Source of the DNA: an uncultured Gammaproteobacteria bacterium
Lineage (GTDB): Bacteria; Pseudomonadota; Gammaproteobacteria; CAWUKA01
Length of the DNA: 47,818 nucleotides
Assembly: GCA_963922965.1 (NCBI GenBank)
Contig: CAWUKA010000003.1
Span: forward strand, 1-47,818
Direction: 5' to 3'
In this document: in pieces, positions 6,901-46,093 of the stretch
Numbering within the stretch: position 1 is the first letter of the stretch
Layout: every line of letters starts with the position of its first letter
The notes under the pieces: model-generated
Told to the model about the DNA's origin: nothing
Seen by the model: only the letters and a program-made list of their open reading frames with translations
Databases searched by the model: none
Program-made: the position numbers and the translations under genes

Positions 6901-6903
6901 CTC

Positions 6904-7986: not shown

Positions 7987-8047
7987 GGTGTTTGATCGTA
8001 GCTAGACTAACTCAAATCGTTATTATTTTACCGTAGGGGATTAATTC

Positions 8048-8623: not shown

Positions 8624-8635
8624 GTTATTCGCTTT

Positions 8636-9709: not shown

Positions 9710-9725
9710 TTGACTAGCACTATTG

Positions 9726-12576: not shown

Positions 12577-13458
12577 TTATGTTGGCGTGTAGAGTTTATT
12601 TTCCAGTTTATACTTGGTATTACTCATACCCGTTAAGTGTATCCAGAATTTTTGTAACTGATGAGATGTGTAAAATTTGAGTATTTTTTGATACGCCTAA
12701 TTTTCTTTTGATATTTTCTAGATGAGATTGAGCAGTTCTTCTTGAAATATTTAAAATTATACCAATTTCTTCTGCAGTTTTACCTTTGCTTGTCCAATAA
12801 ATACATTTTAATTCGGCTAATGTTAAGTATGTTTCACCGTTGTAGCATTAATATAAAATCTTTTTATCCGTGTTGAAGTATGAAAATTTTCTATCTTTTC
12901 TGCTGCAATAGTGTTTGTATCTGGCTTATTATTACTTTGATTTGGAACAAAAATTAATTTTGAGTGATTAGTTGAGTCATCAATTAATTCTCTTGCTTGT
13001 TCATTAAAGTATAAGATAAATTTTTCAAAAATTTCTAAGTGTTGCACATAGACTTCATTAATACTAACGTTTGTTTTATGGGTTGCAAACTCAAATATTT
13101 CATGAAAATTTTTTGAAACGCGAATTAATGAAAAGCCATGGCACACGTCATACTCAATAGCAATATCACCTACAGTAGTATCTTCGCTTAGCCCTTTTAC
13201 GTCCCATATGTATTCCATATCTTTTTGATAAAGCGAGCTAGCTTTGTCAAACCAAGAAATTTTATATAATTCCTGTGAATAAAACAAATTAATCAACTCA
13301 GGATGCGTGCATAAATCAATTCGAGATAAATCTTTATAAACCTGCAGGTATCTAAAAAATGTTAAATCAAGTAAGTCAAAAATAGGTTGGCAAATCACCT
13401 TAATCTGATTATGCGAGTTAAAAAAAATACTATTTTGCGGAATGATCAATACAGACAT
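12577..13458 (-). pseudogene. LuxR-family regulator (ligand-binding N-domain plus HTH), frameshifted
   Basis: ORF 12823..13458 has HGFSLIR...EIFEFAT; the HTH (ELKCIYWTSKGKTAEEIGIILNISRRTAQSHLENIKRKLG) follows in another frame after a shift near 12845. Confidence 0.85.
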
Positions 13459-18615: not shown

Positions 18616-19611
18616 TTACGCTGGCGTTATGGTTAAGGCAAGATGCAGTATTTTATTGGTGTTTTCTACGTTGTTCTGTTGCTCAAGCTGCATTTTGAGA
18701 AAATCAAGCAGCGCTTTTAATTCATTGTTGGCTTGTTGATTGTCCAAGGTTTGTTTTGGAAGAGGAGGTGGTGATGGATGACTGCCAGCTACCATTGATT
18801 GCTCAGTAAAGCCCTGTACTTCCTTGTACAAGTTGGTGTACTCCTCAATTTTGCTTTGCGACACTTGTAAATCGAAGCCTGCAATGGTTGCTGTGTCGTA
18901 ATCAAATAAGTCTACTAAAGCAGACGTTGCTGCATCATTGTCGCTGCTGGTATCACCCATTAAACGCTTGATTTCATTTTCAAGATTGGTCTCGCCAGCA
19001 AATAATTCATCGGTATAGGTTCGCATATCAGTCAGTAGTTCATTTACTGCTGCCGCTTCTGATTCATTTAGATCGCCAATTACTGCGACACTAAATGACA
19101 GCTCTAGTTCTGATGTTTGTTCAGTGACAAGTTGTGCTGACTGAGTTGTCGCCCTGACATAGCTTTCATGCTGTCCCTGACGCAAATAACTACTCGATTC
19201 AGCAGACTGGACCCTGGCATAAGTCACTTCACTTTCTTGTTCAAAGTAGTCTGCTTTGATAGTGATGATGTCGCCTTCTTGGGTTGCAATAGAAAATTCA
19301 AGCTTATTCTCGATTGAGGAGCTATAGCGTTCCATACTCTCATAATGTGAGTAACTCGTTTGCGTGTGGCTTGCATATCCTGGTCTAGCAGGCTGATTGG
19401 CTTGCTGTGGCTGAGTTTCACTGCTTTGCTCAGTTGTCGCCGAATTCAGTGGTAGTGCTGTATGATTCGCGCCATGCACACGAGTCGGCAGTGCAGCTGG
19501 TAAGGATTGTGAATCACCGCTTGTTGCTCGCTGCTCACCAAGGCGTGATAGTAATTGATTAAACTGAGCGTGGTTTTTTCTGCTCGATAAACCACTCGCA
19601 TCAATATACAT
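18616..19611 (-). CDS. acidic S/Q-rich hypothetical protein (DUF5610-like)
   Basis: Motifs I.TQEGD.ITI and FSV.V.GDLN.SE..AV.ELL typical of this uncharacterised proteobacterial group; GAGG RBS. Confidence 0.6.
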   Translation of the reverse strand: MYIDASGLSSRKNHAQFNQLLSRLGEQRATSGDSQSLPAALPTRVHGANHTALPLNSATTEQSSETQPQQANQPARPGYASHTQTSYSHYESMERYSSSIENKLEFSIATQEGDIITIKADYFEQESEVTYARVQSAESSSYLRQGQHESYVRATTQSAQLVTEQTSELELSFSVAVIGDLNESEAAAVNELLTDMRTYTDELFAGETNLENEIKRLMGDTSSDNDAATSALVDLFDYDTATIAGFDLQVSQSKIEEYTNLYKEVQGFTEQSMVAGSHPSPPPLPKQTLDNQQANNELKALLDFLKMQLEQQNNVENTNKILHLALTITPA

Positions 19612-21784: not shown

Positions 21785-24700
21785 TTAAATTGACGCAGCA
21801 GCTTGTGCTTGGTAAGCCTCAACTGGATGTTGCCATTGCTTTTCTACCATGACGCTACGCCATTCACTGATGAGCTGACGCTCCACGCTGGCTTCGTTAG
21901 CGGTGATGATGTGTGGGTGTTGTTGAATGTTAAGTTTTGTTAGCTCAGCTTGAACAGCAGCAATCTCATCTTTGGTGGGTACAATGACATAAGCAATTTG
22001 ATAGGTAAGCGCGATTGGGTCCCGTAAATCAATGACTTGACCGAGGCCAACCCAAAAACCGTTCTGGTTGGTTATATATTTATAAGCTCGGGCTTGAAAT
22101 TCAACAGCGCGCTGATCAAGTGCAATCACGTAGTTACCATAAGCAGATTCCGGTTTTGTTGAGAAAAATGCACCAGGAAAACTACCACGGTGATCCATGC
22201 TAATGCCGGCATTGATCATGCTGGCAACATTGGCTGGCTCTCTAGTTGCATGATAATAGCAGGGTAGGTTAATCGACTGGCCGTGTTGCAATTGTTGCTG
22301 ATGCTCTCGATAGCGAGCTTGAATCGATTGCATATGCGTCTCACTCTTTCCATTACAGAGTGCCAGCACATGCTCGACTAATCCGATATCATCGTTGTAG
22401 CCGTGTTTCGCAACAATACGACCATAAAATTGGCTGTTGACTCGTTGGCGTAGATATGCGACCTCAGCGCCACCACTACGTAAGTGATTCATCAGCCTAT
22501 GCCGAGTTGACAGCGGCATCTGTTGCAGCAGTCGTGCAACTAAGTTTTGATAGCGACTGCTTGCACTTAGTGCTAATACCAGCCTAATATTGTCGGCAAG
22601 TTCTACTATGTGAGCGATGATATATTGATTTTGGTCGCTAGATAATTGCTTACCATCAACAAGACTTTGTATGATAACTGCTACTGGATTTAATTTTGGC
22701 TTGAGATCAATGGGCACAGGAAATTGCTCTGCTGCAGCCAGCACTGCGGGCGTTTCAGCGCTATGGCTCATCTTAGCCACTTGCTGTGCTTGATCACGTG
22801 TTTCAAACACGTAACCCGCGATGTCTTTTTGAATAGCTTGCCCTTGTGCTTGACTAATCAATGCGGCTTCACTGGTAGCCTCATTATCATGTGTCAGCGG
22901 TTCAACAGCAGCTATGATTGCTTGTTGGAGTGCTTTGAAGGTTGGGTCAGCTTCAAGCGCCGTAGTTAACTCACCGATAGGTCGCGTATCATCATCCCAC
23001 AGAGCCAGGAAAGCTCGGTGCTTTTGACTATCCAAGTCCTGCATAAACGCGACAACTGCTTCTCTCATGTAGCGACGAGCAACTTCGATTGGCTCGATAG
23101 CAAGTTGAATGTATGCCAAATCACCGTGAAACGCTTCCCCCAGTTTACCTAGGGTACCAACTGGACAAGCAGGCTGATCGTTTGATAAGTGTTCACCGTA
23201 AAAATCAGGGTAAGGCTGTTGGGTAGCAGGGTTAAAACCGAAGCTACAGTGGGTGCGTTGAATACGACAGAGTGCTTCGACGAGACTGCGTATCCGTGCC
23301 TGTGGTGTGGTGAGTACCACTTTATCATCTTTTTCTAACTGACAAAGGTGGATTAACATCGCTAATAATTCCGGTAGCCGGTCACGCCACGCATCCGGTA
23401 AGCCGTCTTGTGGCAACCATGTTTTTAAGCGTCCCATTGCCCGTAGGGCAACGGTTAACTTTAGCTTCAGCTTTTGCTCAAATTGCTGTTGTAGGTGTCG
23501 TTCCATGACTTCTGTTTGTAGTATTTTATGCAAGTGTTGTTGTGTTGTTGTTTCAGCTTGTCTATGATCTTGATCGACTCTATCTCGATTTGACTTACGC
23601 TTCGCAGCACGCTCACTGATGATATCAGTGCATAACTGGCTTGGGTCTTTTAGTGTTTGCTGTAGCGTTTGTTCAAATTGACGGAACAAACGCTGTCTGA
23701 CCTGAGGGCACGAACAATCAATTTGGAGTTCGCTGATATGCTTTGCAAGAGCGCGCGCGTTCAGTGTAGCCGAATGCCGCGCATTGGGATCATGGGCATT
23801 ATGCTGATCATCAGCAAACGCTTGTGCTACATCACCACCTTGTCCACCACGAGCGGCTGGCTGGGTCACACCAAAAAGCTGGGCTATTGCTGGGGTAATG
23901 AGATGGCGGCCAAACTGATTCGCTTGTGCTTGCGTCAGGCTAAGCCCGTGCTGTTGCAGTGCAGCCAGAACTTGTAGATTCATCTGTAGTAAAATCGCAT
24001 TTTCAACTAATGTCTTATTTTTATATCGAAATTGAATAAGTGCTTGGCTGTCGATGTCCGAGTTTGCAAGCAAAGCTATTACCTGATCAGAGTAATTTTT
24101 GGTAAAGCCTGTTATGAGTGTCTCGTTAATCGAGCGGTTGATGAAGTTTCGGCATCCTGCAGGTTCAGGATACCAGCGTCTAAATTCAGCAAACCATAAT
24201 TGAAGATCATGAGGGTCATAATGAAGATAAAACTCAAGGTTTTCAATATCAGATCTTGCAATAACATTAGTATACTGACCCGCACTATTATCTGCTGACT
24301 GATTGATAGCCCTAGCTTTGCGTAGCATGCGAATAAGTTTCACATCAGTGTAGCTAACTGACGTGTCGGTTCCTTGTTCTAGCTTTCTCATCTCTGCACA
24401 TAAAACACTTAAAGAGGGTACATAGTGATAGGCTAGAGCACGACGACGAAAAAAACCAAAGTTAGCTAAGCTATCGAGAAAGTCGCGATCAGCCGTTGTG
24501 ATCACTTCTGTCTCCTCCGGTAATAACATCTTCAAGAGTAATAGAGCTGAGTTAGCATCAGTTGCGCTACCAGCCAGGTTTTCATGGCTACATGCTAGAT
24601 CAGGTTGCGTGAGAAATGCTTTGATTGCTTCTTGTCGCGCAGGATTATTGCTTAGATAAATTTTATATAGATGCTGAATTGCTTGCTTGCAAAAGAACGA

Positions 24701-25444
24701 ATTGAAGGTCGTTGCTAAATCCTCATTACGATCTAAATAGTGATTATAAGAGGGACAAAATATTTGGTCGTCACTAAACTTTATATAAAAGTTAAACTCA
24801 CTGAACAGGGTGCTATTCATATATAGATAGACAGTTTGGTAGTTAAATTGACTGAATACGAGCTCAGCAGATAACAAAAATATTAGTGTAGTGGTTGCAA
24901 TGATCCAGAGTGGTGAAAGCTGAAAATAAATTGCACTGAGAACAGCAATTGCTACCATATCGATCAGATGATAATAAAGTGCCCGGAGCAAACGCAGTGC
25001 CATTGGCTGACCGACTAGGGATAACTGGAGTTGGAAGCTTGGTGGTTTCTGCCACGAGTCAAATATGCGGTAAGCATAACAGCCGATAAAGAGCACGAGT
25101 AGTATTGGTAGAATAGTACTTAGACTGATCACACTTGGAATTGACAAACTTAACTCAACCATACTGAACATAAAAGCAAGGATCAGGATGAGCGATAGCG
25201 CAAAAAGTCCAATCCAGCTGGCGACACGGGCTAATTCATCTAGTCGTGTAACGTCTTCTCTTATAGGTAAGTTTTCACTGATAGCCAAGCCACTAAATAT
25301 AACGAAAATTGGCGTGCCGATAATGGCACAGGCTAACGTAACACTCTGCAGGAATGTCACTGAGTACGCTAATGCAAAGAGAAAGAGTGTCGCACCACAG
25401 GCGGTAGCTATTTTTAGTACTATGCGTTTCAAGAGCTGCATCAT
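21785..25444 (-). CDS. large multidomain effector-like protein: N-terminal TMs, central putative Cys-catalytic domain, C-terminal ADP-ribosyltransferase-like domain
   Basis: Intact 1219-aa ORF, GAGGGA RBS; about 6 TMs in the first 200 aa; QHNAHD...IQR...DQPACPVGT.GKL; YYHAT...GAFFST.PESAYG.YVI. Confidence 0.75.
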   Translation of the reverse strand: MMQLLKRIVLKIATACGATLFLFALAYSVTFLQSVTLACAIIGTPIFVIFSGLAISENLPIREDVTRLDELARVASWIGLFALSLILILAFMFSMVELSLSIPSVISLSTILPILLVLFIGCYAYRIFDSWQKPPSFQLQLSLVGQPMALRLLRALYYHLIDMVAIAVLSAIYFQLSPLWIIATTTLIFLLSAELVFSQFNYQTVYLYMNSTLFSEFNFYIKFSDDQIFCPSYNHYLDRNEDLATTFNSFFCKQAIQHLYKIYLSNNPARQEAIKAFLTQPDLACSHENLAGSATDANSALLLLKMLLPEETEVITTADRDFLDSLANFGFFRRRALAYHYVPSLSVLCAEMRKLEQGTDTSVSYTDVKLIRMLRKARAINQSADNSAGQYTNVIARSDIENLEFYLHYDPHDLQLWFAEFRRWYPEPAGCRNFINRSINETLITGFTKNYSDQVIALLANSDIDSQALIQFRYKNKTLVENAILLQMNLQVLAALQQHGLSLTQAQANQFGRHLITPAIAQLFGVTQPAARGGQGGDVAQAFADDQHNAHDPNARHSATLNARALAKHISELQIDCSCPQVRQRLFRQFEQTLQQTLKDPSQLCTDIISERAAKRKSNRDRVDQDHRQAETTTQQHLHKILQTEVMERHLQQQFEQKLKLKLTVALRAMGRLKTWLPQDGLPDAWRDRLPELLAMLIHLCQLEKDDKVVLTTPQARIRSLVEALCRIQRTHCSFGFNPATQQPYPDFYGEHLSNDQPACPVGTLGKLGEAFHGDLAYIQLAIEPIEVARRYMREAVVAFMQDLDSQKHRAFLALWDDDTRPIGELTTALEADPTFKALQQAIIAAVEPLTHDNEATSEAALISQAQGQAIQKDIAGYVFETRDQAQQVAKMSHSAETPAVLAAAEQFPVPIDLKPKLNPVAVIIQSLVDGKQLSSDQNQYIIAHIVELADNIRLVLALSASSRYQNLVARLLQQMPLSTRHRLMNHLRSGGAEVAYLRQRVNSQFYGRIVAKHGYNDDIGLVEHVLALCNGKSETHMQSIQARYREHQQQLQHGQSINLPCYYHATREPANVASMINAGISMDHRGSFPGAFFSTKPESAYGNYVIALDQRAVEFQARAYKYITNQNGFWVGLGQVIDLRDPIALTYQIAYVIVPTKDEIAAVQAELTKLNIQQHPHIITANEASVERQLISEWRSVMVEKQWQHPVEAYQAQAAASI

Positions 25445-30165: not shown

Positions 30166-31020
30166 TTAAGCGAGTAGTTTTTCCATCACAAATTGTTCAA
30201 AAGAATTAACCGCGATATTAGCATTCCCATGTTTTAACATTGACACATGAGTGTCTGCTAATGTTGGTATGTGTTGAGCTTTATGCATCATCCGCATTTC
30301 GCTTGGTATCATATTGCGCGGTAATACAGTGATGCCTAAGCCAGCTTTTACTGCGGCAATTTTACCTGCAAAGCTATCGCTACAAAAAACCATGCGCCAT
30401 TTTCGTTTTGCTTGTTCAAGAGCGTTAATCGCTCGCAATCGATATACGCAAGGCTGTGGCGATAGGATCAGAGGAATCACTTCATTAGTTGATCGGCTAA
30501 AGAAATGTTCTGAACCAACCCACTCTAATTGTTCTGACCAGACGTCAATGCCATTGGGGAAGTCGCTTGGCTTGTTCATCTTAACCAATACTAAATCAAA
30601 AGCTTTTTCTTTAAAGCGTTGAAATAAATTAACAGTGAGATCACATTCTATATTCAGTAGGATGCGAGGATGCATTGCTGCAAACTCACTCAGCACATCA
30701 GACAGAAAAACACTGGCAAAATCTTCTGGCAAACCAAAGCGGACTTCACCTTTAAGCTCAGGTTGTTTAAAGCGATCAACCGCTTCGTGCTGTAGCTGCA
30801 TGATTGAGCGGGCGTAGCGTAGCAGAATTTCGCCTTCAGCTGTCAATGCGAAGCTCTTGCCTCGAATAAACAATGTTTTCTCAAGTTGTAATTCAAGTTT
30901 TGCAATTTGTTGGCTAATCGCTGACTGAGTGCGGCCAACTTTGTCGGCCGCTCGGGTAAAGCTACCGGTGTCACAAACGGCAATGAAGCAATCGAGTGTC
31001 AGTGCATCAAATCCAATCAT
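30166..31020 (-). CDS. LysR-family regulator divergent from the dab operon
   Basis: GSFTRAA..VGRTQSAISQQI..LE HTH; VRFGLPEDFA substrate-binding domain. Confidence 0.93.
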   Translation of the reverse strand: MIGFDALTLDCFIAVCDTGSFTRAADKVGRTQSAISQQIAKLELQLEKTLFIRGKSFALTAEGEILLRYARSIMQLQHEAVDRFKQPELKGEVRFGLPEDFASVFLSDVLSEFAAMHPRILLNIECDLTVNLFQRFKEKAFDLVLVKMNKPSDFPNGIDVWSEQLEWVGSEHFFSRSTNEVIPLILSPQPCVYRLRAINALEQAKRKWRMVFCSDSFAGKIAAVKAGLGITVLPRNMIPSEMRMMHKAQHIPTLADTHVSMLKHGNANIAVNSFEQFVMEKLLA

Positions 31021-31122
31021 TAGCAACGCTTATCAGGTTAATTAGTATTAATTATTTTACTTATATCAGATGTGCTTATAATCTTAACTCAATAAATTTG
31101 TTTTGTTAATGGTAGATAAAAA

Positions 31123-32457
31123 GTGACAAGTTTTGAATTATTTCATATCGACAGGGTCAGTGTGCTAATGATGGCGGTCATTACTTTAATATCAGCGTCG
31201 GTGTTTTCATTTTCAAGACGATATTTGGCTGGGGATTCCAAGCAACGCTATCAGCTATGCCACCTTGTTGCTATTAGTTTTTCTCTCTATCTACTTGTTT
31301 GTATTGATAATTTTATATTATTTTTATTTGCTTGGTTTATTAGCAACAGCTTATTAACGCGTATGATGTTACACAAATCTAACTGGCCAGCCGCCAAGGC
31401 TTCTGCTCGATTAGCACGTGATAATTTCATGATTGGCTTTATCTTTCTCACTGCTGCTTTCCTGTGTCTCAACTTTTACACTGGGCTGGTTTCAATTCAG
31501 AGCTTACTCATTTACCCCCTGCCAATCACAATTTTATTGCCAAGTGGTCTTTTATTGCTACTCGCTGCAATGACACAGTCAGCGTTGTGGCCTTTTCACC
31601 GCTGGTTGATTAGCTCATTAAACTCACCGACACCTGTCTCAGCCATGATGCATGCTGGTTTAGTCAACGGTGGTGGTTTTTTACTAATTCGCTTTGCACC
31701 ATTGTTTTTGCAGCAACAGCAGTTGCTGCTCATGGTGTTTCTAGTCGGTTTATTAACAACAGTGCTAGGAACAAGCTGGAAGCTAATGCAAGCAGATGTT
31801 AAACGAATGCTAGCTTGCTCGACGCTTGGGCAAATGGGCTTTATGATCCTTCAGTGTGGATTGGGCTTTTTTTCTTTAGCGCTCATGCACCTGTGTGGCC
31901 ATGCTTGTTTTAAGGCTTATTTATTTTTAGCATCAGGTTCAGCAAGTAAAGAAAAACGAGTTGATAGTGCTAGAGTTGCAAGCTTTACGAGCATTCTAGT
32001 TGCGTTGAGTTGTGGTGTAGTTGCGTCTTATTTATTTGTTAAATTTAATCAACGTATTACTTTTTCACTTGATACGAATCTTTTTGTTATTGCGCTTATA
32101 ATAATGTTTGCAACCCAATTAATGCTATCGTTATCAAGCAATACGAATCACTTTATGATACCAATATTGTTTATTATTACACTTGCAATAGTAATCGGCT
32201 ATGGCTTGATGCTCAATGTTATGGAGACGTATTTACTGCCGTTAAATTTATTACAACCGCAACCCTTGACTGCTATTCACCTTATAGCGTTAATAATATT
32301 GGTTATGGCTTGGTTGTGTTTTATTAATAGAGCATCTATAAAATTATTCCAGCGCCAACCACAGTGGTTACTCAAGCTATATGTTTACATGCTGAATGCA
32401 AGTCAACCGGATCCTAGAACCGTAACACTACACCGTAATCAGTACCAATATCGATAA
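31123..32457 (+). CDS. dabB: DabB/MpsA-like proton-conducting membrane subunit (NuoL-like)
   Basis: SALWPFHRWL...SPTPVSAMMHAG.VNGGG, DVKRMLACST.GQMGFM.LQCGLG, HL.GHACFKAYLFL; directly upstream of dabA. Confidence 0.88.
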   Translation: MTSFELFHIDRVSVLMMAVITLISASVFSFSRRYLAGDSKQRYQLCHLVAISFSLYLLVCIDNFILFLFAWFISNSLLTRMMLHKSNWPAAKASARLARDNFMIGFIFLTAAFLCLNFYTGLVSIQSLLIYPLPITILLPSGLLLLLAAMTQSALWPFHRWLISSLNSPTPVSAMMHAGLVNGGGFLLIRFAPLFLQQQQLLLMVFLVGLLTTVLGTSWKLMQADVKRMLACSTLGQMGFMILQCGLGFFSLALMHLCGHACFKAYLFLASGSASKEKRVDSARVASFTSILVALSCGVVASYLFVKFNQRITFSLDTNLFVIALIIMFATQLMLSLSSNTNHFMIPILFIITLAIVIGYGLMLNVMETYLLPLNLLQPQPLTAIHLIALIILVMAWLCFINRASIKLFQRQPQWLLKLYVYMLNASQPDPRTVTLHRNQYQYR

Positions 32458-32467
32458 CGAGGCTAAT

Positions 32468-34693
32468 ATGAAAGCAGTTAATCACTCAGCTGAGCTTCAG
32501 TCTAAGGCATTGACTGGTAGTACTATTGCTTGGAATCCATTGCAACAGCTAATTGAACAGAGCTGGAGTAAGATACCGCCGTTTTGGCCGCTAACACAAT
32601 TAGTTGCAGTCAACCCCATGATGGGGTTTGAAGACTTGCCGTTTGATGATGCTCTGCAACAGGCACAAGCTTATTTTCAGCAAGCTGATTTGCCACAGCC
32701 AATGCAGAACGTTAATCGCGAAACTATCAAGTGGTCACAAACCTACTTTGATGAAGGGGTTGCGACGATTAAAATGCCATATCGAGAGCGAGGCTTTTTA
32801 AACGCTATCCTGACTCTATTGCCATTCGATAAAGACCTTAACCTCAACAACTCAAAAAGCCGCCTATTCCTTCAAAAAAATCCATTAGCAATTATTGCAG
32901 AATGTTTGTTTTATTTGGGTATCCCTACACAAAATTACCAGCAGTTTTTGACGTTGATGTTAACTACATTGCCTGGCTGGGCGACACACATTCAGTATCG
33001 TGCCAGTTGGGATGATTCGGATCAGTATTGTACGCAGGGTTCGATATTGAAAGAAGACTATCTCGCTTTGCGTTTAATGCTTACCTGCTTACTGTACCCG
33101 GAGGCCAAAGTATTACTGATTTGGCATGATGTGACACACGCTAATACTGATATTGAATCAACTAAGCAGCGACTTTTTCAGGCTGAGCAAGCTTATACAA
33201 AACAACTTCTTAGCCAGATTAGTCAGCAGCAGCGGAATAACAAGCAACAATTACCAGTTGCTCAATTTATCTTTTGTATTGATGTTCGTTCGGAACGGTT
33301 TCGTCGCTTACTAGAAGTGCAAGGCAATTATGAAACTTTTGCTTGCGCAGGATTTTTTAACTTGCCAATTGTAGTTGAAAATTCACTTAGTGATGAGGTT
33401 CATCCATCATGCCCAGTGTTAATCAAGCCCAGCGAAAAAGTAATAGCCGGCTCAGGGTTGACTATAACTACCAGACTATACTCAAGTTTATCGCGAATAG
33501 TGAATCGAGCCTATCAGTCACTCAAGTATGGTTTAGTGACACCGTTTGCGCTAGCCGAATTGACTGGTTTTGTTAAGGGTTTGTTTATGGCTTTACGTAG
33601 TTTCTCACCCAAAATAACCGGCTTAGTGATAACAGGATTAACCACAGCTACATCTGGTAAGCCTTCAGTTCACTTCTCGTTAGATTCGATACCTTTGTCT
33701 CAGCAGCTTACCTATGCAGCAGAAGCATTAAAATTGCTTGGTTTAACCAGTAACTTTGCCTCGACTATTGTATTGTGCGGGCACGGTAGTTCGGTGCAGA
33801 ATAATCCATATGATAGTTTATTAAACTGCGGTGCTTGTGGTGGGCGACATAGTGGTGTTAATGCTGAGGTGCTTGCAGCTATACTAAATCAGGTTGTTAT
33901 CCGTCATGGCTTAATTGAGCATGATATCAAAATCCCACAGACGACTCATTTCATTGCTGCTGAGCATAATACTTTGACTGATCAGGTTGAGGTTAACGAT
34001 CGGGGTCTCCCTAAATCACACCAGCACATATTATCTCAACTGCGTCGTGACCTGCAGCAAGTCAGTTTGCTAAGTTGTGCTCAACGCGCATCACAGTTTG
34101 ATACTAAAATAGCAGAAAATGGAGAACGTGACATAAAAATACGTGCATACGATTGGGCTGAAGTGAGACCAGAATGGGGTTTGGCGCGTAATGCTGCTTT
34201 TGTTATCGGGCCGCGCTGGCTAACAAAAAATATTGACCTTCAGGGTCGTTGTTTCCTTCATTCATATGATTGGCAGCAGGATACTAGCAATGATGTGCTA
34301 ACAACCATATTGCTTGCGCCAATGATTGTTGCGCAATGGATTAATGCTCAGTATCTTTTCTCTACTCTCGACAATGTCGCTTTTGGCAGTGGTAGCAAGG
34401 TTACTCAGAATATCACTGGCAAGGTGGGTATCATGCAGGGCAATGCTAGTGATTTGATGCATGGTTTGCCATTGCAATCTGTTTTTAAGACTGACACTGA
34501 TCCATTTCATGAGCCGATGCGCTTATCTATAGTTGTTTATGCGCCTAAGGATAAATTGATGTCAATTATCAAAAATCAACCAGTATTAAACAAATTATTT
34601 AGTAATCAATGGTTGCATTTGAACTGTTTTGAGCCAGATTTTAGTAGTTGTTTCAATCTAAAAGAGGATTTGACATGGCAATCGGTGCATTGA
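32468..34693 (+). CDS. dabA: DabA/MpsB (DUF2309) beta-carbonic-anhydrase-like inorganic carbon pump subunit
   Basis: P.WPL...VAVNP, FCIDVRSE, CGHGS...NNPY...LNCGACGG, AAEHNT, DWAEVRPEWGLARNA, FLHSYD, QWINAQY, GSGSK, HEPMRL; Zn ligands C/D/H/C present. Confidence 0.93.
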   Translation: MKAVNHSAELQSKALTGSTIAWNPLQQLIEQSWSKIPPFWPLTQLVAVNPMMGFEDLPFDDALQQAQAYFQQADLPQPMQNVNRETIKWSQTYFDEGVATIKMPYRERGFLNAILTLLPFDKDLNLNNSKSRLFLQKNPLAIIAECLFYLGIPTQNYQQFLTLMLTTLPGWATHIQYRASWDDSDQYCTQGSILKEDYLALRLMLTCLLYPEAKVLLIWHDVTHANTDIESTKQRLFQAEQAYTKQLLSQISQQQRNNKQQLPVAQFIFCIDVRSERFRRLLEVQGNYETFACAGFFNLPIVVENSLSDEVHPSCPVLIKPSEKVIAGSGLTITTRLYSSLSRIVNRAYQSLKYGLVTPFALAELTGFVKGLFMALRSFSPKITGLVITGLTTATSGKPSVHFSLDSIPLSQQLTYAAEALKLLGLTSNFASTIVLCGHGSSVQNNPYDSLLNCGACGGRHSGVNAEVLAAILNQVVIRHGLIEHDIKIPQTTHFIAAEHNTLTDQVEVNDRGLPKSHQHILSQLRRDLQQVSLLSCAQRASQFDTKIAENGERDIKIRAYDWAEVRPEWGLARNAAFVIGPRWLTKNIDLQGRCFLHSYDWQQDTSNDVLTTILLAPMIVAQWINAQYLFSTLDNVAFGSGSKVTQNITGKVGIMQGNASDLMHGLPLQSVFKTDTDPFHEPMRLSIVVYAPKDKLMSIIKNQPVLNKLFSNQWLHLNCFEPDFSSCFNLKEDLTWQSVH

Positions 34694-35559
34694 ATCTCGC
34701 AACAAAACTCCAGTCAGTCTATGTTGGCTCTCGAGTGATACTAACTACTAAGCATCATAAGTCAGAAGCTTTAGCTGAGCCGTTTGCAAATAGTCTTGGA
34801 GCTGATGTTTTTGAGTATAGTGCTGATACCGATCGGCTAGGCACATTCAGTGGTGAAGTCGAGCGACCAGCTGATACGCTCGAGACTGTGCGTAAAAAAT
34901 GTGAATGGGGTTTGCTAGCAACTGATGCTGATTATGCAGTAGCCAGTGAGGGTAGCTTCGGTCCGCACCCAGATTTCGGTTTTATTCCATCAGATTTTGA
35001 AACCCTCTACTTTATTGATCGGCGAAGAGACTTTCATCTTTATGTGACTGATATCTATACCGAAACAAATTATCAAGTACAGCAAATTACAACTTGTGAA
35101 GAGTTGTTGAAGTTCGCAGAGCAAGCCTTATTTCCATCGCATGGTCTCATTGTGCGTTCAGATAAGAATAAAACACCTGAGGTGCTCTGCAAAGGTTTGC
35201 AGAGCCGTAAAGCATTAATTGATGCATTTTATAAAGCAAAGCAAAATTCTACTAGCGGCTATATTTATGTTGAGACTGATATGCGCGCACACTTGAACCC
35301 AACTCGAATGAAAGTGATTCGCTTGCTAGCTGACAAGCTTGTTGCTCGACTCGCCACTCCATGCCCAGCCTGTTACACGCCTGGTTGGGGAGTGACTAAT
35401 TTAGAAGCTGGTTTACCTTGTAGTTGGTGTGGTTCACCGACTAATCAACTTAAAGCAGAAATTTACCGCTGTGTGAAATGTAACTATAAAGATAGTCGCC
35501 GACCTTCACATGGTCAATTCAAAGCTGATCCGACTCATTGTCCCTCTTGTAATCCGTAA
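34675..35559 (+). CDS. DUF6671-like protein with four C-terminal CxxC motifs
   Basis: TKH.K, DTD.LGTFSGEVER, ASEGSFGPHP, ETDMRAH.NPTRM, CPAC..PGWG, CSWC, CVKC, CPSCNP; overlaps the dabA stop. Confidence 0.75.
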   Translation: MAIGALNLATKLQSVYVGSRVILTTKHHKSEALAEPFANSLGADVFEYSADTDRLGTFSGEVERPADTLETVRKKCEWGLLATDADYAVASEGSFGPHPDFGFIPSDFETLYFIDRRRDFHLYVTDIYTETNYQVQQITTCEELLKFAEQALFPSHGLIVRSDKNKTPEVLCKGLQSRKALIDAFYKAKQNSTSGYIYVETDMRAHLNPTRMKVIRLLADKLVARLATPCPACYTPGWGVTNLEAGLPCSWCGSPTNQLKAEIYRCVKCNYKDSRRPSHGQFKADPTHCPSCNP

Positions 35560-35580: not shown

Positions 35581-36010
35581 TTATTTAATTATCATATTAT
35601 TGATGTCGTAATAATGTGTAATATTGATAGCTTGCAGGAAATCTTCATCATGACTTAAAACAATAATCACACCAGGATATTGTTGCAGAATTTGAATAAT
35701 ATGTTGCTTTGTCATAAAATTGAGATTATTCGTCACTTCGTCTAGTAGCAGTGAGCTAGGAGGATTTACTGCAATAAGACAAAGCGATAGTCTAGCTTTT
35801 TCTCCACCAGAAAGATTGCTCACTAAAGTGTAGACTTGATAATTTTTACGAAATAAAAACTCGTTTAAATGGCATCTCAATTCTTGCTGATGCCAGTCTG
35901 GTCTCACACATTGGAGTTGCTCGATAACTGAAAGTGTCGGATTAAGATTCGCATAGTGTTGATGAAGATTCGCATAGTGTTGATGAAGATAACCTATCTG
36001 TTCTTGCGTT
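35581..36010 (-). pseudogene. C-terminal remnant of an ABC-F ATPase
   Basis: IGYL.QHY, LSGGEKARLSL, LLLDEVTNNL, SHDEDFL; no Walker A or start; contains a 21-bp duplication. Confidence 0.8.
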
Positions 36011-38077
36011 GGTGCTAGAACTTGCTGCTGCAAAACCAGAACTTTCAGTTGTAGCAGGTGGCAGAAATAGTGGTCGGCACGACCTACAATTGCAACTTGG
36101 TAATATAGGAAGCTTTGATCTTTGATCATCATGAGAAAGTTGATCGCAAACTGTAACTTGGGGTGTCGTCATCATCTGTTGCAACGTGCTCGGCTGAGAA
36201 AAGGTTGTGAGCGAAACTGCACCCAAGACGGCGATACAAAAACCAGATACTGCAAAACAGGCAGCAGCCGGTGGAAAAGTTAAGCCTGATAATGCGAAAA
36301 ACAAACCATTGATCAGTGCTAACAGAAGCAAGTTGTACCCGAGCGCGCTACCCATGCAATAGCGATAGGTTTGTTGGGCTTGCCCTAACATCTGCATCAA
36401 GCCAGCCAGTGCGGATAACTTGTCTTGCGCAACAAAAAAGTTTGCTTGTTTTGCAGCCTGGTCATTGAGGTTATTGAGGTCCGCTGCAACACAGATCCCA
36501 ACATCTGCTTGTTGCATAGCCTCGACATCGTTATTACCATCACCAACCATGCCAACAACATGGCCGCCAAATAAGCGCTTAAAGTGAGACATAAACCAGG
36601 CACTTGATCCGAGGACTGGTTTGGTTACTGAGCCGTAGCGTTGTAGATTGGTAATAACTTTGCGTTTTGCGCCATGCTTAGGATCGTGATACTCGACGTC
36701 GAAGATAATGTTTTCGCCATCAACAAGACCGTTTAGCTCCGTTTTGCAGGCTTGTAAGTGGGCCTGCCAATCACCTGTGCCGTGGCCACTTAAAATATAA
36801 ACGGTTATACCTTTTGCTTTTAGTTCCTGTAATAGTGCCTTAACACCGTTACTAAGAATATATGGCCCGCTAAGATCTTCACTGTTTGGTTGATACAGGG
36901 TATGGGTTCTATCAAATACCATGATGGTTGGCGCACCACGACTTGGCATCTGATTAAACTGGAATGACTTTTCCTTGTTAACCCAATCGAGTAGTTTGGC
37001 GTGAATAATCGGCTTCGCGACTAGAAATACGCAAGGACAGGAGACCATCAGGTTCATGCAAAAACTTTGAAAGCCAGCAACGATGGAGCCAGCAGTAAAG
37101 CCTTGCCACAAGCCAGCAATTACTGCAATACTTAATACCAAGATCAGAAAAGCTTGTAGCAGTCGGTCGGGGGTTTCGGTTTGTTGGCGTTGACTCGCAT
37201 GATTAGTGGGTTGGTAGTTTGCTAGGCATTTCACAGAACCAGAGTAATAGTATGTGTTAACGTTGATGATTTCGTCGCTGCTTTTTTTTAACATGCCTTC
37301 AGAGACATCATCACGGATGTGGCACGTGTCTACTACTTGGCAAGCCACGGGCAGCATCAATCCTTGCTTGATCTCGATCACCATACCCTGTTTAAGCTCG
37401 GTTATCGGTATGGTCTTTGATTTACTCTCATCTGGATCGGAAATACTAACAGTCGTGCTAGCATGATTGTGCGGTAAGGCTGTGGATTGCATGCGCTGCT
37501 TTATCCAACTTGCCAAATTAAAGGTGCCTAAGGTTAATAGGGCATCGTGCAGCACAAATGAGTATATCAGTTGGCTGGAAGCAACTAAGCTAGCGAACGA
37601 AATACTCCAATTTAAGATGACGAACAGCAAGATAATCTGCTCAACTGAAGGTAACCGCAGTACTGAATTAGGTTGAGTTAGTCGTGCGGTTTTTTGTTCT
37701 GAACCGGGATGTAGCGCTTGATAGCGGTGTTGCCAGACTGCGTCGTTAACAAATAATGCGACGGCGCCGAGTGAAACAGCAACAGTCAGAAACACAGGCG
37801 CTAACAGCGTACCAGCTACGATGGGTGCCGACAGTGCTAAGCTAACTGCAATTAGCATTGTAAAGCAATAGTTACGTTGGTGAGCGAAATCTTTTGCTAT
37901 TGAATAAGTTAGTAGCGTTGTTAAGCCTAGCAGGCAAATGTAGCCGACTACACCTGTAGTGACAAACGCTTCAACTGGCGGGAGTAATAATAAACAGCCA
38001 AGAATCAGGCAGTAGAGTGAGCGGCCAAGTAAGCCTTCAGTATGCGCTCTTTGTTGTCCACAACAATCATCAGCCAT
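35942..38077 (-). CDS. divergent P1B-type ATPase-like membrane protein lacking the N-domain
   Basis: SCPC, VFDRTHTL (vs DKTGT), ILSGH (vs TGD), MVGDGNNDVEAM.QADVG, YN in a late TM; only about 12 aa where the N-domain normally sits. Confidence 0.75.
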   Translation of the reverse strand: MADDCCGQQRAHTEGLLGRSLYCLILGCLLLLPPVEAFVTTGVVGYICLLGLTTLLTYSIAKDFAHQRNYCFTMLIAVSLALSAPIVAGTLLAPVFLTVAVSLGAVALFVNDAVWQHRYQALHPGSEQKTARLTQPNSVLRLPSVEQIILLFVILNWSISFASLVASSQLIYSFVLHDALLTLGTFNLASWIKQRMQSTALPHNHASTTVSISDPDESKSKTIPITELKQGMVIEIKQGLMLPVACQVVDTCHIRDDVSEGMLKKSSDEIINVNTYYYSGSVKCLANYQPTNHASQRQQTETPDRLLQAFLILVLSIAVIAGLWQGFTAGSIVAGFQSFCMNLMVSCPCVFLVAKPIIHAKLLDWVNKEKSFQFNQMPSRGAPTIMVFDRTHTLYQPNSEDLSGPYILSNGVKALLQELKAKGITVYILSGHGTGDWQAHLQACKTELNGLVDGENIIFDVEYHDPKHGAKRKVITNLQRYGSVTKPVLGSSAWFMSHFKRLFGGHVVGMVGDGNNDVEAMQQADVGICVAADLNNLNDQAAKQANFFVAQDKLSALAGLMQMLGQAQQTYRYCMGSALGYNLLLLALINGLFFALSGLTFPPAAACFAVSGFCIAVLGAVSLTTFSQPSTLQQMMTTPQVTVCDQLSHDDQRSKLPILPSCNCRSCRPLFLPPATTESSGFAAASSSTNARTDRLSSSTLCESSSTLCES
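35944..35990. repeat. perfect 21-bp tandem duplication
   Basis: AAGATTCGCATAGTGTTGATG x2 plus AAGAT. Confidence 0.95.
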
Positions 38078-38279
38078 TGATTAACTCGATATCAAAAAAC
38101 TAAAAAGGGAATGTATTTTATACAAAATTTATCCCGTCGACAAGCCGTGGATCGAGATATTGCAGCAATGAGGCAATAAATTCGTACAGTGTCCCTTCGT
38201 TTGCTTAAAAATAGGTGCAGAGGGCATCAGTGGCTAGAAAAGACCTACCTAATAGAAATAATCAACTGTTAATTAAATA

Positions 38280-38420
38280 ACTTCGCTTGTAACCGCATTT
38301 GCGACATAAAGACCTTCAATAAATCCCCGAGCTTCTACTGATTATGAGCCATTAAATTTTCTTTACCGCATGCTTTCATGAATCCGATTTGGTCGACTAA
38401 ATTGCAAAGCAAGTTTGCTG
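38280..38420 (-). pseudogene. possible GNAT acetyltransferase fragment
   Basis: Short translated pieces IGFMKA and ARGFIEGLYV; boundaries approximate. Confidence 0.25.
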
Positions 38421-38472
38421 TCTCTGCTATCGTTGATTGAGCTTCTATAGATAGCTATGGTTAAATGTGTTG

Positions 38473-39404
38473 ATGAGCTATCCAGAGACAACAATAAATT
38501 TAAGTCTACGGGGCTTGACAGAAATTCCAGCTAACATTTTGCTGCAAAATCAACTTGAGCAGTTATGGCTTGATGAGAATCAGATTCAGCAGCTGCCCGA
38601 AGTTATTCGCCAATTTAAATGTTTGAGGATGCTGAGTTGTTATCATAATCAGCTAAAGTCATTACCAGATGGGCTTTTTCAATTAACAATAATTGAACGT
38701 TTGAATCTAAGTGCTAATCAAATAGCCCTAGTGCCTGAGTTAATCGCAAAACTAGTTAATCTAACTATGCTCGATGTTCAGTATAATTTACAAACGGCAT
38801 TACCTGATGCTATAGGTAGCCTCACAGCACTTCAGTTTTTATATTGTGCTGGTAATCAGATAACCGTGTTGCCTGCATCGATCATATAATTGACTCAGCT
38901 GATTTATTTAAATTTATCTGACAATCAATTTGAATCATTACCAGCATGTATTGCTAGTTTTACTCAGCTCATTGAGTTAAAAATTCAAAATAATAATCTT
39001 AAGCTATTACCAGATGTTTTTAATAGCTTGGTCAATTTAAAAGAATTATATGCAATGCAGAATAAGATTACAGACTTACCTGAGTCAATTGGCTGTCTGT
39101 TGTAGCTAAGAAAATTAAATCTCGCGCAAAATCAACTGGGATCAGCGCCTAACAGTATTGGGCTACTTCAAAATCTTAGTGAACTCAATCTGCGCTCAAA
39201 TTACTGACCGTGCTCCCTGATGCAATAGGACAATTAGGATGTCTGAGATATTTAGATTTGCCAGAGAATCAAATAAAATGTTTGCTAGGCAGCATGTAAA
39301 ATCTTCACCAGCTTGAGAAGCTTGATCTTCGTCTCAATAAAAATATAATAATTCCAGCTTGGATTGAAGAACTTGAAGTCAAAAGATGTGTTGTTTATTG
39401 GTAA
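38473..39404 (+). pseudogene. leucine-rich repeat protein, disrupted
   Basis: About 12 23-aa LxxLxLxxNxLxxLP repeats running through stops at 38887, 39103 and later frameshifts to 'CVVYW*'. Confidence 0.85.
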
Positions 39405-41736: not shown

Positions 41737-43189
41737 ATGTCAACTCCATTATTTATTAGCGGTAGTTAAAGAATTGCAACAGCTTAAATGCGCTGTACAA
41801 TAAAAAAATATCTAGTCTGGTTGTTATCAAAGGTAAGCGTAGGGTTGGTAAAAGTCGGTTAATCAACAACTTTGCCTCTAAACATACAAAAAGCAGGTTT
41901 TGGGATTTTGCCGGATTGGCGCCATAAGGAGGCATCAGTGCTCAAAGCCAACGTGATTATTTTGCGAGACAGTTAGCAACACACTTACATTTGCCACCTT
42001 TTACCTTTCAAGATTGGGCTGATGCTTTCGAACACTTGGCTAAGCAAGTAAAAGCGAGTGATATTATTTTATTCGATGAAATTTCCTGGGTGGGTTCAAA
42101 AGATTCAAGCTTTATTCCGAAATTGAAAGCCTGGTGGGATAAACAACAGATACCTATTATGGTTGTTTTTTGTGGTTCGGTTTCAATCTGGATCGAAAAT
42201 AATATTTTAAAAAGTACTGCTTTTTTTGGTCGGATCAATCTTGCTCTGTCATTAGAACCATTGCCGATACCTGAAGCCAATCAATTGCTACGAGTCTCTG
42301 GGTTCCAAGGTTTAGATTATGATACCTATAAATTACTTAGTATCTTTGGCGGTATACCATGGTATTTACAACAAATTACACGGGGTCAAACTGCTGATAC
42401 TTTAATTAAGCAGTTATGCTTTGATAAAGACGGTTTATTAGTATTGAAGTTTGATCGAATTTTTCGCGATTTGTTTAATGGAAAAGGAACGCTTTATAAA
42501 AAGATACTTGATAGTCTGAAAGATGGTATGATAACCTTAGCTGATGTGCGAAAACACGCTGAGCTTCCACGCAGTGGGATGCTAAGTCATTTAATCGAGC
42601 AGCTGATTATTGCAGGATTTGTTCAGAAACAAAATCTTTGGTCTTTTAAAACTAGTAAAACATTGAAGCAAAGCCTGTATCGTATCTGTGATCCTTATAC
42701 ACGATTCTATCTCAAAGTAATAAAACCTCAGCGTAATAAGATAGATTTAGGTAGCTTACAAGCGTTAGTAATATCAAGCTTACCAGGGTTTGAAGCTCAT
42801 CTCAGTTTGCAATTAGAACAGTTACTTTTGCAGAATAGAAATATCTTAATTAATGCAATTGGTGCTAATCCAGCAGATATCGTCGCAAGTGGACCGTTTC
42901 GACAATCGAAGACGGCAACTAAAGCAGGATGTCAAATTGATTTTTGCTACAGACAACAATCAAGAGTTTATTTGTCTGCGAGTTTAAATTTAAACGCCGA
43001 GAGTTAGGTTTGGATATTGTATCGCAGGTTCAAGAAAAAATTAGCGCGCTTAAAGTGCCTAGAGGCTTTGCGACGATTCCAATCTTGTTTCACATCGGCG
43101 GTGTCTCTGACAATCTGGCAACTAATGGCTATTTCTATAGAATCATTGATATTGCCGACTTTTTAACAGAATCTTCTATGCCTGAATAA
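41737..43189 (+). pseudogene. AAA+ ATPase (COG1672 type) with C-terminal nuclease-like domain, disrupted
   Basis: GKRRVGKS, ILFDEISW, CGS, GGIPWYL, YRICDPY.RFY, QIDF, VCEFKF; stop near 41925 and frameshifts near 41760 and 42940. Confidence 0.85.
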
Positions 43190-44504: not shown

Positions 44505-45311
44505 ATGCATATACAGTCATACATAAAAGAAATCAGAAAAGCTGGTAAGTGTTGTTTTACTATTCAGGATGTAGTTGATAAATTTGGTGCATCCAGGGGT
44601 CTAGTAAGAGTTTCTGTGAATAACTTACTAAAATCTGGCGATTTAATATCATCGGCACGTGGGCTATATGTCATCGTCCCGCCAGAGCACCAGCACCACG
44701 GCTCTATTCCAGCACAAGAATTAGTTCCTTTAGTAATGAGATATTTAGATGCCAATTATTATGTTGCCTTGTTGAGTGCAGGATTACTATATGGCGCAGC
44801 TCATCAAAAACCAGCAAGATTCCAAGTCATATCAGATAAACGTATCAAGTACCCTTCATCTTTTGATGATGTGGAAATTGATTATATCTATAAAAAATCT
44901 ATTTTAAATTTGCCAACTCAAGATTTTACTGTGGCTACTGGCTATCTTAAAGTTGCAACTCCTGAATTGGTTGCGCTTAATTTATTTAAATACCCTGATC
45001 ATGCCGGCGGTTTAAACCATATTGCAACAGTATTTTCAGAACTCATTGAAACCTTAGTTCCTATTAAATTAATAGAACTTGCAAAAAATACCAATTCTGA
45101 ATGTCAGTTGCAGCGTATTGGTTACATTTTAGATCACATTGATCTTATGGATGAAGATAATGCTGAAATAACAATTAATGCTCTTGCCCAGTATGTGCAG
45201 AAAAATAAACCAAATTATCTACCTCTTGCATCTGAAATTTCTAAAACAGGTTACCCAAGATGTAAGAAGTGGAGAATTATTGAAAATACAGAAATAGAGA
45301 ATGATTTATGA
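44505..45311 (+). CDS. abiEi: type IV TA antitoxin AbiEi
   Basis: N-terminal wHTH, RGLYVIVPPE, YYVALLSA..LYGAAHQ.P, VATPE, QRIGYIL, W.IIEN. Confidence 0.85.
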   Translation: MHIQSYIKEIRKAGKCCFTIQDVVDKFGASRGLVRVSVNNLLKSGDLISSARGLYVIVPPEHQHHGSIPAQELVPLVMRYLDANYYVALLSAGLLYGAAHQKPARFQVISDKRIKYPSSFDDVEIDYIYKKSILNLPTQDFTVATGYLKVATPELVALNLFKYPDHAGGLNHIATVFSELIETLVPIKLIELAKNTNSECQLQRIGYILDHIDLMDEDNAEITINALAQYVQKNKPNYLPLASEISKTGYPRCKKWRIIENTEIENDL

Positions 45312-46093
45312 TTCCAGAAAATTTTATTAAAGGTTGGCGTAAAACTGTCTCATGGCAAATGGATGAACAAATAGAACAAGATTTAATTATTAGCCGAGCA
45401 TTAGTTGATTTATATAACGACCCTCATATCAGGGAGGCACTTGTGTTTAGAGGCGGCACTGCCCTAAATAAACTGTTTATAGAGCCTCCAGCAAGATATA
45501 GTGAGTATATAGACTTTGTCGCAAAAAAAACTGATCCTATTGGGCAAACCATCGATGCTATTAGGAACTTACTAAAACCATGGATGAGAGATCCAAAATG
45601 GAAAATCATGCAACGTGGTGCAAAGCTAATTTATAAATATGAATCTGCTAACTAGGTCCCTGCAAAGCTTAAAATTGAAATAAATACAACAGAACATTTT
45701 CAGGTATTGCCTTTAAAAAAAGTTCCTTTTTCTATAAATTCTGAATGGTTCAAAGGAAATGCAGATGTTATTACTTATGAAATAGATGAGTTGATGGCTA
45801 TAAAACTAAGATCACTCTATCAAAGGCGTAAGGGACGTGATTTATTTGATGTGTGGTATGCAGTAGATCGTAAATTAATTAACCTAGATAAAGTGTTTGA
45901 TATATTTTTTGAATATAATGTCTATAACAATGTGAAAATTTCTGGCGAAGATTTTATAAAAAATATTGAGTTAAAAAAGAATCACCGTGATTTTAATATG
46001 GATATGAGAGTTTTATTGCCTTCTAAACTGTATTAGAATTTTGATGAAGCATACCAGTTTGCTGTAGGTAAGGTAATCAGCAGGCTGCCATGA
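45308..46093 (+). pseudogene. abiEii: type IV TA nucleotidyltransferase toxin AbiEii, two nonsense stops
   Basis: EQDLIISRAL, FRGGTAL.KL, RYSEYIDF, LKIEINT.E, K.R.LYQR.KGRDLFD; in-frame TAG at 45653 and 46034. Confidence 0.88.

Follow-up and report, generated by a model that had tools for sequence, protein, structure and literature searches.

How might a P-type metal pump work once the domain that binds its adenosine triphosphate (ATP) has gone? The question is raised by a gene in a stretch of 47,818 nucleotides from an uncultured Gammaproteobacteria bacterium (assembly GCA_963922965.1, contig CAWUKA010000003.1), the whole of which was analysed and is here called the window. The gene (35942..38077, 711 codons plus stop; it and all of its features given below lie on the reverse strand) encodes a CopA-like, P1B-derived membrane protein without a nucleotide-binding (N) domain, and belongs to what we call the D-R-T family after the residues at its presumed phosphorylation site. 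The gene is intact and represents a branch of the CopA-like (P1B) ATPases that is old, monophyletic and uncharacterised; the family probably runs on something other than ATP.

Loss of the N domain and retention of the phosphorylation core

A word-indexed search that scored 8000 candidates returned 13 proteins at E<=1e-3, comprising the query, 11 relatives (618-708 aa, 30-42% identity) and one canonical pump aligned over 17% of the query, whilst HMMER, run exhaustively against 1.84 billion representatives, found 1790 proteins with E<=0.001, of which 69 reached E<=1e-10 and 46 reached E<=1e-30. A motif script applied to the first 80 proteins distinguished a family with the pattern D-R-T-[H/N/G]-T, in which CPC lies about 42 residues before and GDGxND 87-135 residues after this motif, from ordinary matches with DKTGT and a GDGxND spacing of 178-225. 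The 155 proteins from both searches, minus 35 that were shorter than 560 aa, made up an alignment of 120 rows, namely 53 N-less family members (52 D-R, one D-L) and 67 canonical proteins of the DKTGT type, and the row counts given below refer to this alignment. The relatives carry the source annotation ‘HAD family hydrolase’ only and come from Gammaproteobacteria or Pseudomonadota assemblies. Plasmids gave no tblastn match, and a scan of contigs in which 601 stretches matched (best E 1e-10) yielded no D-R-T open reading frame (ORF) in the best 80 of 441 confirmed loci, the GDGxN pattern of ordinary P1B pumps having swamped the scan.

Motif I of the protein, DRTHT (36899-36913), is followed by 18 residues, LYQPNSEDLSGPYILSNG (residues 394-411, 36845..36898), which form a flap or linker at the N-domain insertion site of P-type ATPases and separate DRTHT from the helix of the phosphorylation (P) domain (residues 412-421 in the structure model described below). 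Counted from the final Thr of motif I to the motif II Ser/Thr, the 53 rows without an N domain have 35-44 residues (median 37), compared with a median of 146 in the 67 DKTGT rows. From 30 canonical P1B proteins a hidden Markov model (HMM) was made for the N domain; it matched 73 of the collected proteins, all of them canonical, and none of the D-R-T family members. Profile-profile alignment (hhalign) of the family with 30 canonical P1B proteins extended over family positions 144-624 (probability 100, E 1.3e-43) with the N domain as the only large gap, and the best match of the family profile against solved structures was A. fulgidus CopA (E 4.3e-33), in two stretches that skip the N domain. 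Judged from the sequences the nucleotide-binding domain, the loss of which the initial annotation of this gene had claimed, has been cleanly excised, with a hairpin of 18 residues in its place.

The Pfam ‘Hydrolase’ (HAD) profile matched the target protein with its second half only (residues 404-525 against profile positions 95-191 of 191, E 3.6e-8). Neither E1-E2_ATPase (PF00122) nor the HMA domain (PF00403) was found in the target; the former was matched by four members of a 48-sequence alignment of the family, the latter by none of the 48. Amongst the NCBIfam models the cutoff of TIGR01494 (general P-type) was barely passed (63.4 bits, cutoff 62.3), those of TIGR01525 (P1B; 58.7 bits, cutoff 346.25) and TIGR01511 (Cu; 41.1 bits, cutoff 397) were not reached, and residues 385-524 matched HAD-SF-IIIA at an E value of 2e-5, below its curated cutoff.

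All four HAD core motifs (the Asp nucleophile, Ser/Thr, Lys and Asp-Asp) are present. Translation of each motif's own coordinates recovered every item on the motif list of the initial annotation, that is DRTHT, SGH, GDGNND, CPC, YN and the terminal Cys clusters, as well as the Asp codon at 36911-36913. This codon specifies Asp389, the presumed phosphorylated residue, which is present in 53/53 family and 66/67 canonical rows. Next to it stands Arg390 in place of Lys (Arg in 52/53 family rows, the other being the D-L protein; Lys in 67/67 canonical rows), followed by Thr391 at Asp+2 (51/53 versus 66/67) and Thr393 (51/53 versus 67/67). In motif II, SGH (36782-36790) replaces TGD, with Ser430 in 52/53 family rows (35 Ser and 32 Thr in the 67 canonical rows), Gly431 in 50/53 and His432 in 48/53, the canonical column at this last position being gapped. 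Lys471 of motif III (36665-36667) is Lys in every row of both sets (53/53 and 67/67), and motif IV, GDGNND (36527-36544), contains Asp513 (51/53 versus 65/67) and Asp517 (53/53 versus 67/67). Residues C347, P348, C349, D389, R390, T391, T393, K471, G512, D517 and A520 are invariant in the 48-sequence alignment, where E260, S430, G431, H432, D513, N516 and C614 are at least 90% conserved. A 23-residue insert (residues 483-505, 36563..36631) that has no counterpart in some subclades separates the helix of motif III from the strand of motif IV, and the Asp-to-GDG spacing is 95-100 in some members.

At the level of conserved residues the HAD phosphorylation core is complete (Asp389, Thr391, Ser430, Lys471, Asp513 and Asp517), and the recurrence of the same set of changes in 53 divergent proteins makes the observed pattern more than chance. 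Judged by residue conservation, the coordinated remodelling that the initial annotation had seen in this gene is under selection, for D-R-T, the deletion and CPC are common to all 11 near-length relatives and to 53 of the 120 rows; contrary to the refuting case considered there, the closest homologues do not combine DKTGT with an N domain. Given these shared features a function other than classical ATP-driven pumping, as also suggested there, is a sensible conclusion.

An AlphaFold2 model was run with the 48-sequence alignment and had a mean predicted local distance difference test score (pLDDT) of 86.4 and a predicted template modelling score of 0.83. In the model the P-domain strands end at Asp389, Ser430 and Asp513, a short hairpin (residues 390-411) occupies the N-domain site and the 23-residue insert is a loop plus a helix (residues 491-504). 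The comparison with CopA that had been recommended for this protein was made with Foldseek against the PDB, and the top ten hits were all P1B-ATPases, led by L. pneumophila CopA in its E2P state (4bbj, E 1.6e-17). Template modelling (TM) scores were modest (0.34-0.46), as this is a multi-domain protein with one domain missing; six of the seven listed hits with a TMq of at least 0.42 are E2P, E2-Pi or BeF3 states. The Atlas model of a marine homologue, P0008, matched Cu pumps with TM-scores of 0.56-0.59.

Actuator domain, membrane part and family history

Residues 196-304 (37166..37492) constitute a beta-rich actuator (A) domain, recognised by hhalign to the canonical A domain and modelled as a beta fold whose strands fall within residues 209-284. 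Ser259-Glu260 is placed on the G-E of TGES by two MAFFT alignments as well as by the profile-profile one, so that Glu260 (37298..37300) is the counterpart of the TGES Glu in the dephosphorylation loop; this column holds Glu in 49/53 family and 63/67 canonical rows. The residue before it is Gly in only 11/53 family rows, and the Thr of TGE is absent. The statement that the actuator region has no TGE is thus right in the literal sense, but it overstated the loss, since the agreement of three alignments indicates that the catalytic Glu of the actuator loop has been kept. The GE motif is needed for dephosphorylation of the DKTGT Asp, according to a passage of PMC7558416.

From hydropathy and the positive-inside rule ten helices are predicted, an arrangement that leaves the two termini and all three domains cytoplasmic. 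Two additional N-terminal transmembrane helices at about residues 20-61 (37895..38020; recognised by hydropathy, with model helices at 2-29, 33-40 and 42-63) precede the equivalents of MA, MB, M1 and M2 (residues 65-195, 37493..37885), which were assigned by alignment to canonical P1B proteins and appear as helices 65-83, 92-109, 112-122, 145-162 and 176-195 in the AlphaFold2 model. Across the alignment the mode of hydrophobic segments ahead of M1 is four in the family versus two in canonical rows. The protein thus has the CPx in M4 and the MA/MB plus M1-M6 topology by which P1B pumps are recognised, with two N-terminal helices added.

The CPC motif of M4 (37031-37039), at which the model helix is broken (helices 332-345 and 349-369), occurs in 53/53 family rows; in canonical rows Cys347 and Pro348 are each found in 67/67 and Cys349 in 66/67. 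M5 and M6 (36197..36367) contribute Tyr581-Asn582 (36332-36337), Cys607 and Cys614. The loss of MxxSS claimed for M6 is real, the helix reading AACFAVSGFCIAV with Cys614 in the column of the second Ser and Val in that of the Met, which is retained in 23/53 family rows. Cys607 is shared by 48/53 family rows where canonical proteins have Ala or Gly, whilst position 614 is Cys in 43/53 and Ser in 10/53 family rows versus Ser in 61/67 canonical rows. The target therefore does not have the full M5/M6 signature of the P1B-1 (Cu+) group, for although YN is present the M6 Met and second Ser are replaced. The metal ligands of A. fulgidus CopA are Cys380, Cys382, Tyr682, Asn683, Met711 and Ser715, as given in a passage of PMC7558416. 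The predicted membrane metal site of the target is enriched in thiolates (Cys347, Cys349, Cys607 and Cys614).

Both ends of the protein are also rich in Cys. Near the N terminus is a vicinal Cys5-Cys6 pair (MADDCCG; 38060-38065), which MAFFT placed on the CxxC column of the HMA domain, and CNCRSC (36077-36094) lies near the C terminus. Such features are common in the family: CC occurs within the first 30 aa of 35/53 family versus 7/67 canonical rows, and CC or CxC in the tail after M6 of 34/53 versus 2/67, whereas CxxC before M1 is found in 6/53 versus 58/67. The two additional helices and the terminal Cys-Cys replace the HMA domain. The remainder of the C-terminal tail (35945..36076) is unconserved and, in the model, disordered, with pLDDT <50 for residues 640-711.

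Amongst known systems the Cu(I) P1B-1 pump CopA (A. fulgidus 3j08, 3j09 and 7r0g; L. pneumophila 3rfu and 4bbj) gives the best sequence and fold matches. The target resembles it in the helix order MA, MB, M1-M6, the beta-rich A domain, CPC in a broken M4, the motif I Asp, the motif III Lys, GDGxND and, in this copy, the M5 Tyr-Asn, but differs in lacking an N domain, in the changes from DKTGT to DRTHT, from TGD to SGH and from MxxSS to Cys...Cys, in the reduction of TGES to S-E, in having two helices plus Cys-Cys instead of HMA, and in its Cys-rich C-terminal tail and 23-residue P-domain insert. The Zn/Cd/Pb pumps of group P1B-2 (ZntA 4umv and 4umw; plant HMA2 and HMA4) likewise have CPC in M4, structures of the ZntA type are among the top folds, and vicinal Cys-Cys in terminal extensions is a feature of this group. 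All of the differences from CopA apply to P1B-2 pumps too, and the M5/M6 residues of the target are nearer to the Cu-type pattern. Cap-less (C0) HAD phosphohydrolases, e.g. HAD-IIIA, share the Rossmann-like core, the four motifs and a short flap after motif I; the target, however, has Thr at Asp+2, carries its core inside a ten-helix membrane protein with an actuator domain, and is far nearer in sequence to P-type P domains. In the literature we found no P-type use of the strings DRTGT, DRTHT or DRTNT, no P-type ATPase ‘lacking the nucleotide-binding domain’, nothing relevant on FUPA families and no description of this family, which may be listed without comment in the 2010 superfamily census (Chan et al.) or in TCDB.

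From the 507 alignment columns in which at least 80% of rows have a residue, a set that leaves out the N domain itself, FastTree placed all 53 family rows on one side of a branch with a support of 94; a clade at 98 comprised 51 of these rows. IQ-TREE (LG+C20), run on 32 family rows spanning the clades and 32 canonical rows (five short plus 27 random), recovered 31 of the 32 family rows in a clade at an SH-aLRT of 98 and 30 at 95; all 32 lay on one side of a branch with a support of only 69, owing to the unsettled position of the long-branch row P0070. Basal members retain an HMA-like CxxC start and a Met...Ser M6. Although the tree is unrooted, this suggests that loss of the N domain together with the change from Lys to Arg came first, and that the ends and M6 were remodelled afterwards.

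By parsimony the presence or absence of the N domain requires five changes on the IQ-TREE tree, at least four of which are forced by well-supported branches, so that excision of this domain recurs, with only the D-R-T lineage having diversified afterwards. Five DKTGT proteins (P0100, P0132, P0133, P0143 and P0148), with 35-50 residues between motifs I and II, show the same clean excision as the target but, unlike it, keep DKTGT, TGES and an MxxSS-type M6, with HMA in three of the five; they occur singly, scattered within canonical clades, and no diversified family was seen. An ORF piece of 260 aa, L066, is of the canonical DKTGT type with the N domain excised too. Matches of P0008 in the ESM Atlas included two clusters of ‘hypothetical protein’ entries of about 557-575 aa, mostly from Chloroflexota, in which E1-E2_ATPase is found in 89-94% of members and no other common Pfam domain is listed; these may be further shortened P-type derivatives.

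Possible phosphoryl donors and competing explanations

The best reading, which is plausible by analogy with characterised pumps but held tentatively, is that the protein is a soft-metal translocator that cycles through an aspartyl-phosphate and takes its phosphate from a non-nucleotide donor. The aspartyl-phosphate would still be formed and hydrolysed on Asp389, and the A domain would couple this phosphorylation switch to the occupancy of, or access to, a soft-metal site in the membrane, of the Cu(I), Zn/Cd or Hg class. As there is no built-in kinase domain the phosphoryl group could not come from N-domain-bound ATP. The donor, which would need a good leaving group and access to the uncapped site, would most likely be a small high-energy molecule of the acetyl-phosphate type (an acyl- or pyro-phosphate), or alternatively inorganic phosphate (Pi) entering by a ‘backdoor’ route from E2 to E2P. 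A contact involving the Lys of DKTGT and the Asp of TGD is known from canonical pumps, and the changes from Lys to Arg (DRT) and from Asp to His (SGH) may have adapted the rim of the active site to the new donor. Retention of Thr at Asp+2 and of the dephosphorylation Glu suggests a site built to hold and discharge an acyl-phosphate, not to hydrolyse phosphoesters, and the protein would be a non-ATP-driven metal translocator or facilitator and not a phosphoester phosphatase. Acetyl phosphate phosphorylates the Na,K-ATPase, and E2P equilibrates with Pi, according to a passage of PMC2217063, whilst an excerpt of PMC10654040 describes the N domain as an ‘inbuilt protein kinase’ and the A domain as an ‘in-built protein phosphatase’.

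Several points weigh against such a translocator, the mechanism of which is put together from conserved residues and analogy. The M5 residues are less well kept than in canonical pumps, Tyr581 being found in 25/53 versus 61/67 rows and Asn582 in 30/53 versus 66/67, and TGE has lost its Thr and Gly, and TGD its Asp. Mean pairwise identity is 0.21 in the A domain of the family versus 0.31 in canonical proteins, and 0.25 versus 0.46 in M5-M6, whilst that of the P-domain core is about equal (0.52 versus 0.55, and 0.31 versus 0.28); the lower values in the A domain and M5-M6 could reflect a weaker constraint on the transport part, although the two sets were not depth-matched. That the model resembles E2P reflects the state which AlphaFold chose and is not a measurement. 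Upstream of the gene, no Rfam match at E<=1, and so no metal riboswitch, was found in 37900-38600, and no operator-like palindrome was found at the promoter-like site TTGTCG-17-TAAAAT (38115..38143; about 38 nt upstream of the ATG, a consensus match only), the only palindromes lying more than 200 nt from it.

A bolder version of the translocator, which we regard as doubtful, would make it the first non-ATPase P-type pump, charged by acetyl phosphate, pyrophosphate, polyphosphate or a phosphoprotein, with Arg390 and His432 as the donor-binding rim.

It seems rather unlikely that the protein is instead a metal-gated membrane phosphatase or sensor, a function proposed in the initial annotation, in which the uncapped HAD core would dephosphorylate a phosphoprotein or a small phosphoester under the control of a metal and no ion would be moved. 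The below-cutoff match of residues 385-524 to HAD-SF-IIIA, the four intact HAD motifs and the lower conservation of the A domain and M5-M6 than in canonical pumps would all fit such an enzyme. The N domain is, moreover, a C1-type cap, and cap-less HAD cores serve large substrates. HAD phosphatases, however, require an Asp at nucleophile+2 as general acid/base, as described in a passage of PMC4081830 in which the substitution D215A lowers kcat from 24 to about 0.0004 per second, whereas the residue here is Thr391, and Thr in 51/53 family rows, as in P-type pumps, which disfavours the phosphatase proposal. The actuator Glu, which serves auto-dephosphorylation only, is retained in 49/53 rows, CPC is present in 53/53 with two more membrane Cys gained, and no fused signalling, kinase, HPt or receiver domain was found in the 48 members of the family alignment or in the 17 proteins scanned because they are long, basal or short-spaced.

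Rather improbable, too, is a passive metal carrier or channel whose cytoplasmic domains would be a scaffold, i.e. a pseudo-enzyme without turnover of phospho-Asp. A protein that has no kinase domain and has lost the TGD Asp and the TGE Thr and Gly could be of this kind, and because levels of free soft metals in the cytosol are very low their downhill uptake would need no energy. A mere scaffold would not be expected, though, to keep D389, K471 and D517 (53/53), T391 and D513 (51/53) and E260 (49/53), catalytic residues that are preserved across proteins just 20-45% identical.

Continued dependence on ATP, with a separate N-domain-like ATP binder, a kinase or a phosphotransfer protein phosphorylating Asp389 in trans, is less likely still. 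The uncapped site would be accessible to a protein donor, for which Arg390 and His432 could form a docking rim, but the N-domain HMM found nothing in the window (376 ORF pieces in six frames, best E 0.71), the gene appears to be solitary between a divergent, broken leucine-rich repeat (LRR) gene and an ABC-F remnant, and no fused kinase, HPt or receiver domain was found in the 65 family and short-spaced proteins scanned. Finally, a decaying copA pseudogene or an artefact of assembly or gene calling is effectively excluded. In its favour are the broken genes that abound nearby (the ABC-F remnant, the split AbiEii and the LRR gene, which has stops in frame), the single DKTGT proteins that show this deletion in otherwise canonical lineages, and the 3' end of the gene, which enters a tandem repeat. 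Against it, the ORF is unbroken over its 711 codons, the deletion and motif set are common to 52 other representatives, the family is one clade, the model reaches the mean pLDDT given above and the composition fits that of the neighbours (GC at third codon positions 0.419, versus 0.31-0.49).

Genomic surroundings and wider meaning

Downstream of the gene is an ABC-F ribosomal-protection-like remnant (35581-36132, reverse strand) that lacks the first three quarters of such a protein, consists of its last ~130 residues (NF000355 positions 368-497 of 499) and overlaps with the final codons of the target in a different reading frame. The target stop codon lies within a tandem repeat of a 21-bp unit (35940-35990, 2.4 copies), which translates as two copies of SSSTLCE in the target frame and as two of LHQHYAN in that of the ABC-F remnant. 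A Dot/Icm-type secretion signal in the Ser/Thr/Glu-rich tail was considered and rejected, the tail being unconserved, disordered and partly positioned over the ABC-F remnant. Beyond this remnant lie a DUF6671 gene and a LysR-DabB-DabA cluster on the other strand. The cluster (30166-34693) consists of a LysR gene divergent from an inorganic-carbon uptake pair, DabB (31123-32457) and DabA (32468-34693), and the DUF6671 gene (34648-35559), which follows and overlaps DabA, encodes Cys-rich, zinc-ribbon-like motifs. Upstream of the target, on the other strand, is the LRR gene (38467-39300, forward strand), which has in-frame stops, with ORFs 38467-38889 and 38890-39105 in one frame and more stops beyond them, and is probably a pseudogene; it shows weak, below-cutoff similarity to LRR effector families.

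Elsewhere in the window, an AbiEi antitoxin gene is intact at 44505-46036 (forward strand) whilst the AbiEii toxin gene is divided between two ORFs, which match profile positions 1-113 and 135-240 of 260; PADLOC gave no hit for the target gene. Two LemA genes (6322-6900 and 8048-8623) and two adjacent DUF3137 genes (8636-9709 and 9723-10733) at 6322-10733 on the forward strand look like a local duplication. A dimeric-type glycyl-tRNA synthetase (3886-5271, reverse strand) shares 64-67% identity with proteins from Herpetosiphonaceae, Legionellales, Candidatus Aquirickettsiella and Gammaproteobacteria, and 78% with one further protein, and this mixture of relatives (Herpetosiphonaceae with Legionellales- or Coxiellaceae-like) hints at horizontal transfer of this type of synthetase. 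An ORF of 1219 aa (21785-25444, reverse strand) had no match in Pfam, NCBIfam, PADLOC or PDB sequences, and further family-less ORFs of 200-370 aa lie at 1502-2626, 5287-6231, 12823-13458, 18616-19611 and 41991-43007.

In textbooks and reviews the A, P and N domains are treated as the universal engine of P-type ATPases, the N domain being its built-in kinase (PMC10654040). A clade that has dropped the kinase and kept the phosphorylation site, the phosphatase residue and the metal site is a natural experiment on the engine that remains, which may have been put to use with another phosphoryl donor, for gating by Pi or in new metal-coupled signalling. Being annotated merely as ‘HAD family hydrolase’, the family escapes transporter censuses. 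The target protein offers a small, confidently modelled scaffold for study of the E2P half-cycle in isolation and, if the bolder version of the translocator is true, the movement of soft metals would be tied directly to the acyl-phosphate or phosphate status of the cell.

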